IMG/VR virus record: IMGVR_UViG_3300034073_003276 | From: a virus | Taxonomy: Duplodnaviria; Caudoviricetes | DNA: 64,000 nucleotides | Reading direction: 5' to 3' (one strand) | Shown: positions 29,495 to 49,804 of the stretch, piece after piece | How the letters are laid out: each line of letters begins with the position of its first letter | Position numbering within the stretch: position 1 is the first letter of the stretch | Translations under genes and position numbers: made by a program | Notes under the pieces: generated by a model | Seen by the model: only the letters and a program-made list of their open reading frames with translations | What the model was told of the DNA's origin: nothing | Databases searched by the model: none

Positions 29495-29572
29495 CGAATA
29501 CATTATATCCCACACCACCCTCCAGTGTGGGTATGAGAGACGTGCTTTATACACCCATAGGTCTCGGTTAAC
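29495..29572 (-). ncRNA. PhotoRC-II-like structured 5' leader of psbA
   Basis: AACCGAGACC...GTCTCTCATACC-CACAC TGGAGGGTG GTGTG-GGA matches my recollection of the PhotoRC-II motif found upstream of cyanophage psbA; boundaries approximate. Confidence 0.6.
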
Positions 29573-29622
29573 AGGTGTGGACAATGTTAAGAATTATGAG
29601 GAATCCGTAACATTTGTTTACC

Positions 29623-47074: not shown

Positions 47075-47146
47075 TGGGCGAAGAGGGATTCGAACCCCCG
47101 ACTGCCTCGGTGTAAACGAGGAACTCTACCACTGAGTTATTCGCCC
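47075..47146 (-). tRNA. tRNA-Val(TAC)
   Basis: Cloverleaf; anticodon arm CCTCG-TTTACAC-CGAGG; TTCGAAT T-loop. Confidence 0.92.
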
Positions 47147-49190: not shown

Positions 49191-49219
49191 AATATAAGAC
49201 AAATATTATGATTTGTCAA
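49191..49219 (-). promoter_or_regulatory. Sigma70-type promoter upstream of tRNA-Gly and the porin
   Basis: TTGACA-17 nt-TATATT. Confidence 0.65.
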
Positions 49220-49291
49220 GCCCCCGACAAGATTTGAACTTGCGACAACCGCTTTACAAAAGCGGTGCTCTACCAACTGAGCTACAAGGGC
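49219..49291 (-). tRNA. tRNA-Thr(TGT)
   Basis: Anticodon arm CCGCT-TTTGTAA-AGCGG. Confidence 0.92.
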
Positions 49292-49445
49292 GAAAGGTGA
49301 TGAGTGCCCATCACCCGCAGAAGACACTTTCTGCGATTTTCACTGCATTAGAGGGCAGTGAATAAGAGAAGTAAGTCTCTGGCGAAGAATCGCCGTGAGC
49401 GTCATACTTCAATTTGAAAGAATCGGACATTTCCAACCCTTTCAA
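49292..49445 (-). ncRNA. Putative structured non-coding RNA (six hairpins, complementary loops); family not recognised
   Basis: Six near-perfect hairpins fill the Asn-Thr spacer; G-U pairs work only on the minus strand. Confidence 0.7.
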
Positions 49446-49518
49446 CTCCCCCACCTGGACTCGAACCAGGAACCCCAGAGTTAACAGCTCCGTGCTCTGC
49501 CAATTGAGCTATAAGGGA
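49446..49518 (-). tRNA. tRNA-Asn(GTT)
   Basis: Anticodon arm CGGAG-CTGTTAA-CTCTG. Confidence 0.92.
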
Positions 49519-49544
49519 ATGGTTTGGAGAATAAAATCTCCAAG

Positions 49545-49706: not shown

Positions 49707-49804
49707 AATTTGATGGATTAAGTGTAATATATCTCATAAGGATATAACAGGGACTTAACCTCTATCAGTTTTATATATTAACAAACTCTTGCGAATTTGT
49801 CAAG

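Follow-up and report, generated by a model that had tools for sequence, protein, structure and literature searches.

A structured spacer between tRNA-Asn and tRNA-Thr

The window, by which we mean the whole 64-kb stretch of viral DNA analyzed here, carries 19 tRNA genes on its minus strand between positions 47075 and 51237, as called by ARAGORN. Its array region is ~79% identical to Synechococcus phage S-SRM01, a freshwater Synechococcus myovirus, and this identity places the window, on sequence grounds, among the T4-like cyanophages (Kyanoviridae). Most tRNAs of the array abut at 0 to 3 nt according to ARAGORN and lack hairpins of the kind described below. Between tRNA-Asn(GTT) and tRNA-Thr(TGT) lies a spacer of 153 to 154 nt (49292-49445, minus strand), filled by an element that begins directly at 49445, next to the discriminator G of tRNA-Asn (49446), CCA not being encoded (Table 1). 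The transcription unit predicted from the promoter at 49803-49775 would comprise tRNA-Ser, tRNA-Pro, tRNA-Asn, the element, and tRNA-Thr. A scan of the window placed no minus-strand terminator-like site within the element, where UUUC, rather than a U-tract, separates H6 from the tRNA.

Several features of the array accompany this unit. The promoter at 49219 starts at the final base of tRNA-Thr and that at 49803 just past tRNA-Arg, both tRNA 3' ends leading directly into a -35 box. The leader past the 49803-49775 promoter (49707-49774, minus strand) holds a hairpin, GGTTAAGTCCCTGTTATATCC...GATATATTACACTTAATCC (L001 2716-2798), which is nearly identical in S-SRM01 and there sits between other tRNAs. 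At the head of the array, an abiF RNA lies directly upstream of the first tRNA and downstream of a promoter, TTGACT-17-TATAAT (51352-51324); abiF likewise heads the arrays of two related loci, L010 and L014, and has been reported in S-CREM1 (PMC9964418).

A sequence-only reading had described six hairpins, H1 to H6, on the minus strand of this spacer, and every pairing that it listed is present in the sequence. The minus-strand RNA has a minimum free energy (MFE) of −64 kcal/mol (z −6.90), equaled by none of 200 shuffles, the fold of the plus strand being weaker (−56.3, z −5.65). The minus-strand MFE holds H1 (14 bp), H2, H4, H5, and H6 as that reading drew them. For the center of the spacer it had noted both the hairpin H3 (AGAGA/UCUCU) and a complementarity between GAAGUA and UACUUC, which are mutually exclusive; the latter is in the MFE as the closing stem around H2, and H3 probably does not form. 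The middle module defined here includes both the earlier H2 and the earlier H3. Neither ARAGORN nor the tRNA model at E-values up to 10 called a tRNA, or a cloverleaf with a T-loop, in 49292-49445.

Table 1. Features of the element and its surroundings, in window positions
Feature	Position	Strand	Description and basis
H1	49414-49445	minus	14-bp hairpin, loop AAUG; MFE; CM R1 partial match, 25.4 bits
Middle module	49368-49410	minus	GAAGUA/UACUUC around CUC/GAG plus H2 (GGCGA-UUCU-UCGCC); MFE
H4	49339-49362	minus	8-bp hairpin, loop CCUCUAAU; MFE
H5	49316-49335	minus	7-bp hairpin, loop AGUGUC
H6	49296-49315	minus	7- to 8-bp hairpin, loop GGCACU; linker of 0-1 nt to H5
4-nt tail UUUC, H6 to tRNA-Thr +1	49292-49295	minus	sequence; +1 = predicted RNase P site
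tRNA-Asn(GTT)	49446-49519 (ARAGORN start 49445/6)	minus	ARAGORN; Rfam tRNA, 60.5 bits; sequence
tRNA-Thr(TGT)	49219-49291	minus	ARAGORN and Rfam; its 5' end sets the 3' end of the element
Sigma-70-like promoter TTGACA-17-TAATAT	49775-49803	minus	consensus scan, 10/12 matches
Internal promoter TTGACA-17-TATATT	49191-49219	minus	11/12 matches; next after 49775-49803
abiF RNA, RF03085	51243-51279	minus	44.8 bits against a gathering score of 37
PhotoRC-II RNA	29495-29589	minus	Rfam, 81.1 bits; typical cyanophage motif

Relatives, boundaries, and modular architecture

By blastn against GenBank phages, S-SRM01 was the only match. Its spacer at the same place (Asn-Thr) is 207 nt long and keeps H1, H4, H5, and H6 with compensatory changes, the middle being different. 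The CM R1 gave one full match in the window (84.2 bits, E = 2e-19) and no second copy in 64 kb, and the element occupies one place in the complete S-SRM01 genome; these single occurrences led us to reject a dispersed repeat of the REP/BIME kind. The tRNA arrays of T4, S-SM2, S-SCSM1, S-PM2, and S-CREM1 yielded nothing with R1. In S-SCSM1 the Asn-Thr spacer is a different one of 133 nt (L281 2577-2709), well folded (z −4.27) and without an R1 match, and its first hairpin (ACGGACUGGAAUACAUCCGU) is faintly like the tip of H1.

Relatives were collected from IMG/VR by exact-pattern scans for H4, for the H5 loop through H6, and for a looser loop pattern, followed by a stem-complementarity filter. 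This left 133 loci with 83 distinct full-length sequences of 70 to 265 nt, a pattern-based collection that is biased toward conserved loops except in its H4- and H1-anchored sets. One exact-pattern scan alone returned ~40 different IMG sample identifiers, and metagenomes of eight studies, covering subsurface, freshwater, estuary, sediment, and marine sources, contain DNA near-identical to the window stretch. Related loci also contain wcaG and abiF RNAs, which fits a cyanophage origin. When genome contigs were scanned with a 14-base loop pattern, none of the 120 matches listed passed the stem filter; these are chance matches with no bearing on cellular genomes.

Covariation among homologues supports H1, H4, H5, and H6. 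In alignment A1, which holds 74 distinct sequences of H4-H6, standard pairs make up 97.6% of cells, compared with 34 to 51% once the partner columns are slid, and nine pairs are changed on both sides (two in H4, three in H5, and four in H6, which are 97.1%, 94.8%, and 99.8% paired, respectively); none of 500 shuffles reached the covariation score. Alignment A2, with 62 distinct H1 sequences, is 92.3% paired (34 to 56% when slid) and has seven pairs in which both sides changed, and the family supports 12 to 13 bp of H1, the outermost U-A pair not being conserved. Pairs at H1 columns 9-26 and 12-23 and at H6 columns 84-97 are predominantly G-U. On the opposite strand such conserved pairs would read A-C, which assigns the structure to the RNA of tRNA sense, and the earlier argument that the G-U pairs of the window fit that strand only is borne out by the relatives. 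The element is a real structured RNA, conserved and encoded in the tRNA sense.

The edges of the element are sharply defined. tRNA-Asn(GTT) lies directly upstream in 120 of the 133 loci, and an atypical tRNA-Asn missed by ARAGORN does so in L004 and L119. In five loci (L035, L046, L051, L065, and L104) a TTGACA-N17-TAATAT promoter, located where an ORF ends, takes the place of tRNA-Asn, and H1 then starts 6 to 7 nt past the -10 box, at the expected transcription start. At the other edge, the next tRNA begins 3 to 6 nt past H6 in all 103 loci where a tRNA follows, the most frequent being Val-UAC (40) and Thr-UGU (39), followed by Leu-UAG (15), Leu-CAA (3), Met (2), Ala (2), and Val-AAC (2). In 29 loci with no tRNA directly after the element, another structured element or an ORF stands instead, the latter for example in L047 and L123, where the element is kept. 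The element boundaries coincide with tRNA processing sites, and in the promoter-led relatives the left boundary is the predicted transcription start. By eye, the ORF that ends in the promoter in L035 (502-1095, plus strand), and also in L046, L065, and L104, bears an HNH-like motif (DFHHINPEEK ... CSNCHREVH); Pfam gave no significant match for the ORF beside promoter-led copies.

Though the sequence-only reading had treated the six hairpins as one family, this unity does not hold among relatives: at least four modules, namely H1, the middle module, H4, and H5-H6, are joined end to end in the six hairpins, and each assorts independently of the others. In all length classes the MFE keeps H1, H4, H5, and H6 separate and locally closed, and the inserts form independently closed domains. 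The interval from H1 to H4 is either empty, giving the 105-nt form, or holds inserts, singly or in combination, from a set of at least seven alternatives, of which one is a four-way domain and another a degenerate tRNA cloverleaf with a GGTTCGATNCC T-loop. H4-H5-H6 occurs without H1 in four sequences of 70 to 71 nt, and H4 is in some relatives absent or swapped for an unrelated GGGGA..CCCC hairpin. A scan anchored on H1 alone gave ~106 genuine array copies, ~30% of which have no H5-H6 in the spacer (one example runs Asn, H1, two small hairpins, tRNA). By blastn-short, the middle module of the window is in none of the other element-bearing loci. Its one recurrence in IMG/VR is in L395 (97.8% identity across 46 nt), where a tRNA and a tRNA-like gene flank it and both H1 and H4-H6 are missing; there the closing stem loses one inward pair and gains three outward pairs, changes that mildly favor the closing stem over H3.

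Further variants were observed among the relatives. The H1-H4 inserts of L007, L008, L014, L027, and L123 have a canonical GGTTCGATNCC T-arm and no acceptor stem, and no such tRNA-like insert is found in the window. In L041 (1516-1540) the H4 stem is intact and its loop is reverse-complemented (ATTAGAGG for CCTCTAAT), which looks like a DNA inversion across the stem. The GGGGACTTGATCACCCCC hairpin that stands in place of H4 in some loci (e.g., L053 7754-7780) contains GAUCACCCCC, partly in its stem, which we take to be one base off the conserved 16S rRNA 3' end GAUCACCUCC, and the H4 loop contains an anti-SD-like CCUCU; both resemblances were noticed post hoc. In L005, L009, L027, L349, L363, and others, a second conserved structured element of ~95 nt with a GTAGGTG/CACCTAC closure and no Rfam match lies just past H6. 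It is usually followed by a tRNA-like gene with a degenerate anticodon arm, which scores 32 bits with the Rfam tRNA model in L014 and is either missed by ARAGORN or called inconsistently as His-ATG, Leu-CAA, or Val-AAC. The window contains neither the ~95-nt element nor its tRNA-like gene.

The H4-H6 core of relatives is also present in contigs from RNA libraries of three studies, which, as assembled contigs with possible DNA carry-over, show neither ends, strand, nor abundance. In one 574-nt contig tRNA-Asn is joined directly to H4, and another contig runs into the second element. Positions 49374-49437 are without cover in these contigs, which has no bearing either way. The contigs are compatible with transcription and, given the possible carry-over, weak evidence for it.

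Invariant loops and known RNA families

As the sequence-only reading had noted, the H5 and H6 loops of the window are complementary over 6 nt with one G-U pair. To avoid the bias of loop-based collection we rely here on a sample anchored on H4 only and drawn from IMG/VR and JGI metagenomes; its 105 loci carry 55 distinct H5-H6 sequences. Across these 55 the H5 loop AGUGUC has an entropy of 0 at all six positions, compared with up to 1.37 bits in the stems, and the H6 loop reads GGCACU in 48, GACACU in 5, and GUCACU and GACAUU in 1 each, the exact AGUGUC/GGCACU pair thus being present in 48 of 55; across the family it reads G[G/A/U/C]CA[C/U]U. This loop invariance reflects strong purifying selection on the loop sequence, beyond what a hairpin generically needs, and an H5 loop that is invariant while its stems vary points to sequence-specific recognition rather than generic structure. 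The two loops could pair in 98.6% of the cells of A1, an alignment partly ascertained on these very loops. The loop-loop covariation that the earlier reading had looked to did not appear, as no loop-loop pair in A1 is changed on both sides. In 6 of the 74 distinct sequences U or C stands at position 2 of the H6 loop, leaving U5-N2 unpaired, and in the H1-anchored locus L388 the H5 loop reads AGCGUC opposite an unchanged GGCACU, breaking a central pair without compensation. With a linker of 0 to 1 nt, H5 and H6 would likely stack end to end and an intramolecular kiss is unlikely, so any loop pairing would be expected between molecules. We also considered a TGT decoy, in which UGU in the H1 and H5 loops would mimic the tRNA-Asn anticodon loop, and rejected it, as many H1 copies read AAUAUC and are without UGU.

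The earlier suspicion that the element is undescribed held up against Rfam. Over 49296-49445 no Rfam family matched at gathering thresholds or at E-values up to 10, manA and wcaG included, nor did PhotoRC, abiF, pRNA, GOLLD, ROOL, YrlA, or tRNA in Rfam 15; the sole overlapping row is a plus-strand chance match to sR7 (E = 9.1). The homologous elements of L005, L007, L010, and L014 gave no Rfam match at E-values up to 0.1. Judged by these sequence comparisons, the element belongs to no described family. Surveys of cyanophage noncoding RNAs name Rfam motifs only (PMC9964418), and the description of S-SRM01 lists its tRNAs and nothing between them (PMC8557907). A catalogue of IMG/VR intergenic regions holds 8,495 candidate structured RNAs of 29 to 151 nt (PMC10690425); it shares its source data and size range with our element, and the motif or its parts may already be among its unnamed candidates, though the text of that paper describes no tRNA-Asn-linked motif.

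The closest parallels are RNAC (species 1) and RNAD (species 2) of T4, small RNAs whose roles are unknown (PMC3014915, PMC9697503) and which accumulate, late in infection (PMC9697503). The order in T4 is tRNA-Arg, 1 nt, rnaD (119 nt), 6 nt, rnaC (139 nt), and the cluster contains the homing endonuclease gene segB, to be compared with the HNH-like ORF, seen by eye and without Pfam support, beside promoter-led copies in relatives of the window. Like RNAC and RNAD, our element lies within the tRNA cluster of a T4-like phage, abuts a tRNA, has the tRNA sense, and is of similar size. In contrast, it shares no sequence or structure similarity with them (R1 scores at most 3.2 bits over rnaC and rnaD with filters off, and its best score elsewhere in the T4 tRNA region is 10.6 bits, E = 0.06). 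T4 rnaC ends in a tRNA-like T-arm hairpin (CCGGGUUCGAAUCCCGG) that the window element lacks, and the cyanophage element, unlike RNAC and RNAD, is a mosaic of shuffled hairpins. Stable accumulation has been demonstrated for the T4 RNAs, whereas the cyanophage element is known here from sequence.

Two other classes of RNA invite comparison. In E. coli, the 3'ETS-leuZ and the metZ-metW spacer are by-products of tRNA precursors that act in trans as sponges of small RNAs; they pair with those RNAs through a single-stranded seed, whereas the window element is nearly all hairpins. With phi29 pRNA, GOLLD, ROOL, and manA it shares a phage association and two mutually complementary loops, and with GOLLD also the adjacency to tRNAs, but it matches none of them in Rfam, shows no loop-loop covariation, and is far smaller than GOLLD or ROOL.

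Possible roles of the spacer RNA

We propose, with moderate confidence, that the spacer yields a hairpin-capped RNA, released by RNase Z and RNase P, whose invariant loops serve as recognition sites. The element would be cotranscribed from the 49803-49775 promoter with tRNA-Ser, tRNA-Pro, tRNA-Asn, and tRNA-Thr. Host RNase Z would cut just past the discriminator of tRNA-Asn, as expected of a tRNA without encoded CCA, and RNase P would cut at the +1 of tRNA-Thr, releasing the spacer as a by-product of tRNA maturation. The product would be ~153 nt long with a hairpin at each end and overhangs of 0 to 1 nt (5') and 4 nt (3'), and such terminal hairpins with short overhangs should resist exonucleases. 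We infer that this RNA would be stable and act in trans through its loops, chiefly AGUGUC of H5 and GNCACU of H6, as sites recognized by a protein or another RNA. Given the independent assortment of the modules, the 153 nt may have no single function, and each hairpin could act in cis.

The last point leads to the foremost alternative, which we consider rather unlikely but the strongest of its rivals: that the hairpins punctuate the tRNA precursor in cis by helping to process, insulate, or stabilize it, the excised spacer having no role of its own. H1 would then be a 3' element of tRNA-Asn and H4-H6 the 5' leader of the next tRNA, guiding or protecting cleavage by RNase Z, RNase P, or RNase E. 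This would account for the attachment of H1 to tRNA-Asn even where H5-H6 is missing, for the distance of 3 to 6 nt between H5-H6 and the tRNA in 103 loci, for an assortment of modules as local signals would show it, and for the local closure of each module, no long-range helix spanning the RNA. Yet insulators need structure only, whereas the loop of H5 is fixed and those of H6 and H4 hardly vary as their stems drift; most tRNAs of the array manage without hairpins at spacings of 0 to 3 nt; and the element is retained both with a promoter in the place of tRNA-Asn and with no tRNA after it. Loops of zero entropy and compensatory substitutions, seen in more than 50 distinct sequences, indicate purifying selection at the RNA level and speak against the improbable reading of the element as debris or selfish cassettes, in which decayed tRNA genes and small mobile hairpins would pile up through recombination or homing endonucleases and do little or nothing for the phage. 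A mosaic in which a single site accepts at least seven alternative inserts, one insert type being a degenerate cloverleaf with the GGTTCGATNCC T-loop, the inverted H4 loop of L041, and the HNH-like ORF beside promoter-led copies, with segB in the T4 tRNA cluster, are what such a process might leave behind; but the element is single in the 64-kb window and in S-SRM01, hence no dispersed repeat, and 49292-49445 matches no tRNA model at E-values up to 10.

The sequence-only reading had itself suggested self-assembly by kissing between molecules; H5 and H6 would stack coaxially and their loops pair from one molecule to the next to form dimers, rings, or filaments, an outcome to which we assign a small probability. 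The 6-nt complementarity, whose four central pairs and C-G pair nearly every member retains, is in its favor, as are H6 variants that preserve pairing (G to A at position 2, turning G-U into A-U, and C to U at position 5, turning G-C into G-U) and the short linker, whose geometry, we infer, disfavors an intramolecular kiss. Precedents exist in the cyanophage manA motif, which forms a 60-mer (bioRxiv 10.64898/2026.07.01.735769), and in the cages of GOLLD and ROOL (PMC12286853). Against it stand the lack of any loop-loop pair changed on both sides, the pyrimidines at H6 position 2 that cannot pair with U in 6 of 74 sequences, and the uncompensated AGCGUC of L388; moreover, two complementary 6-nt loops among five hairpins are only weakly improbable (~0.03 to 0.1 family-wise by our own estimate), and protein binding explains the loop invariance equally well. 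Least probable is that the conserved feature is no structured RNA but a gene for a small protein, an intrinsic terminator, or a DNA-level site such as an inverted-repeat operator (AGTGTC-N14-GGCACT). A 47-codon GTG ORF does overlap the region, and the two loops do form an imperfect inverted repeat with centers ~20 bp apart, but ORFs here run into the tRNAs and are disrupted by the length variation of 70 to 265 nt among relatives, neither a U-tract nor a minus-strand terminator call is present, and the opposite strand, like a DNA cruciform, would have A-C mismatches in place of the conserved G-U pairs. We accordingly set aside a coding gene and an intrinsic terminator as candidates.

That phage tRNA clusters hide small stable RNAs of unfound purpose has been known since T4, and the element described here is a second, unrelated example with far more comparative data, 83 distinct full-length sequences having come from a set of more than 130 loci. 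Hairpins backed by covariation, sharp boundaries, and one frozen loop offer an experimental handle on such RNAs, and S-SRM01 and its host Synechococcus KCZYC6 can be cultured. Should the H5-H6 module self-assemble after all, which we think improbable, infected cells would accumulate RNA-only dimers, rings, or filaments; these assemblies would be released stoichiometrically with the phage tRNAs and display the middle modules as cargo or binding sites, making the element a small natural RNA scaffold akin to manA, ROOL, and GOLLD. For a bacterial or phage RNA it is unusual that hairpin modules are exchanged as a mosaic at a single site. An abiF-type RNA heads the same array. Our findings suggest that the spacers of cyanophage tRNA arrays are a shuffling ground for small RNA parts.
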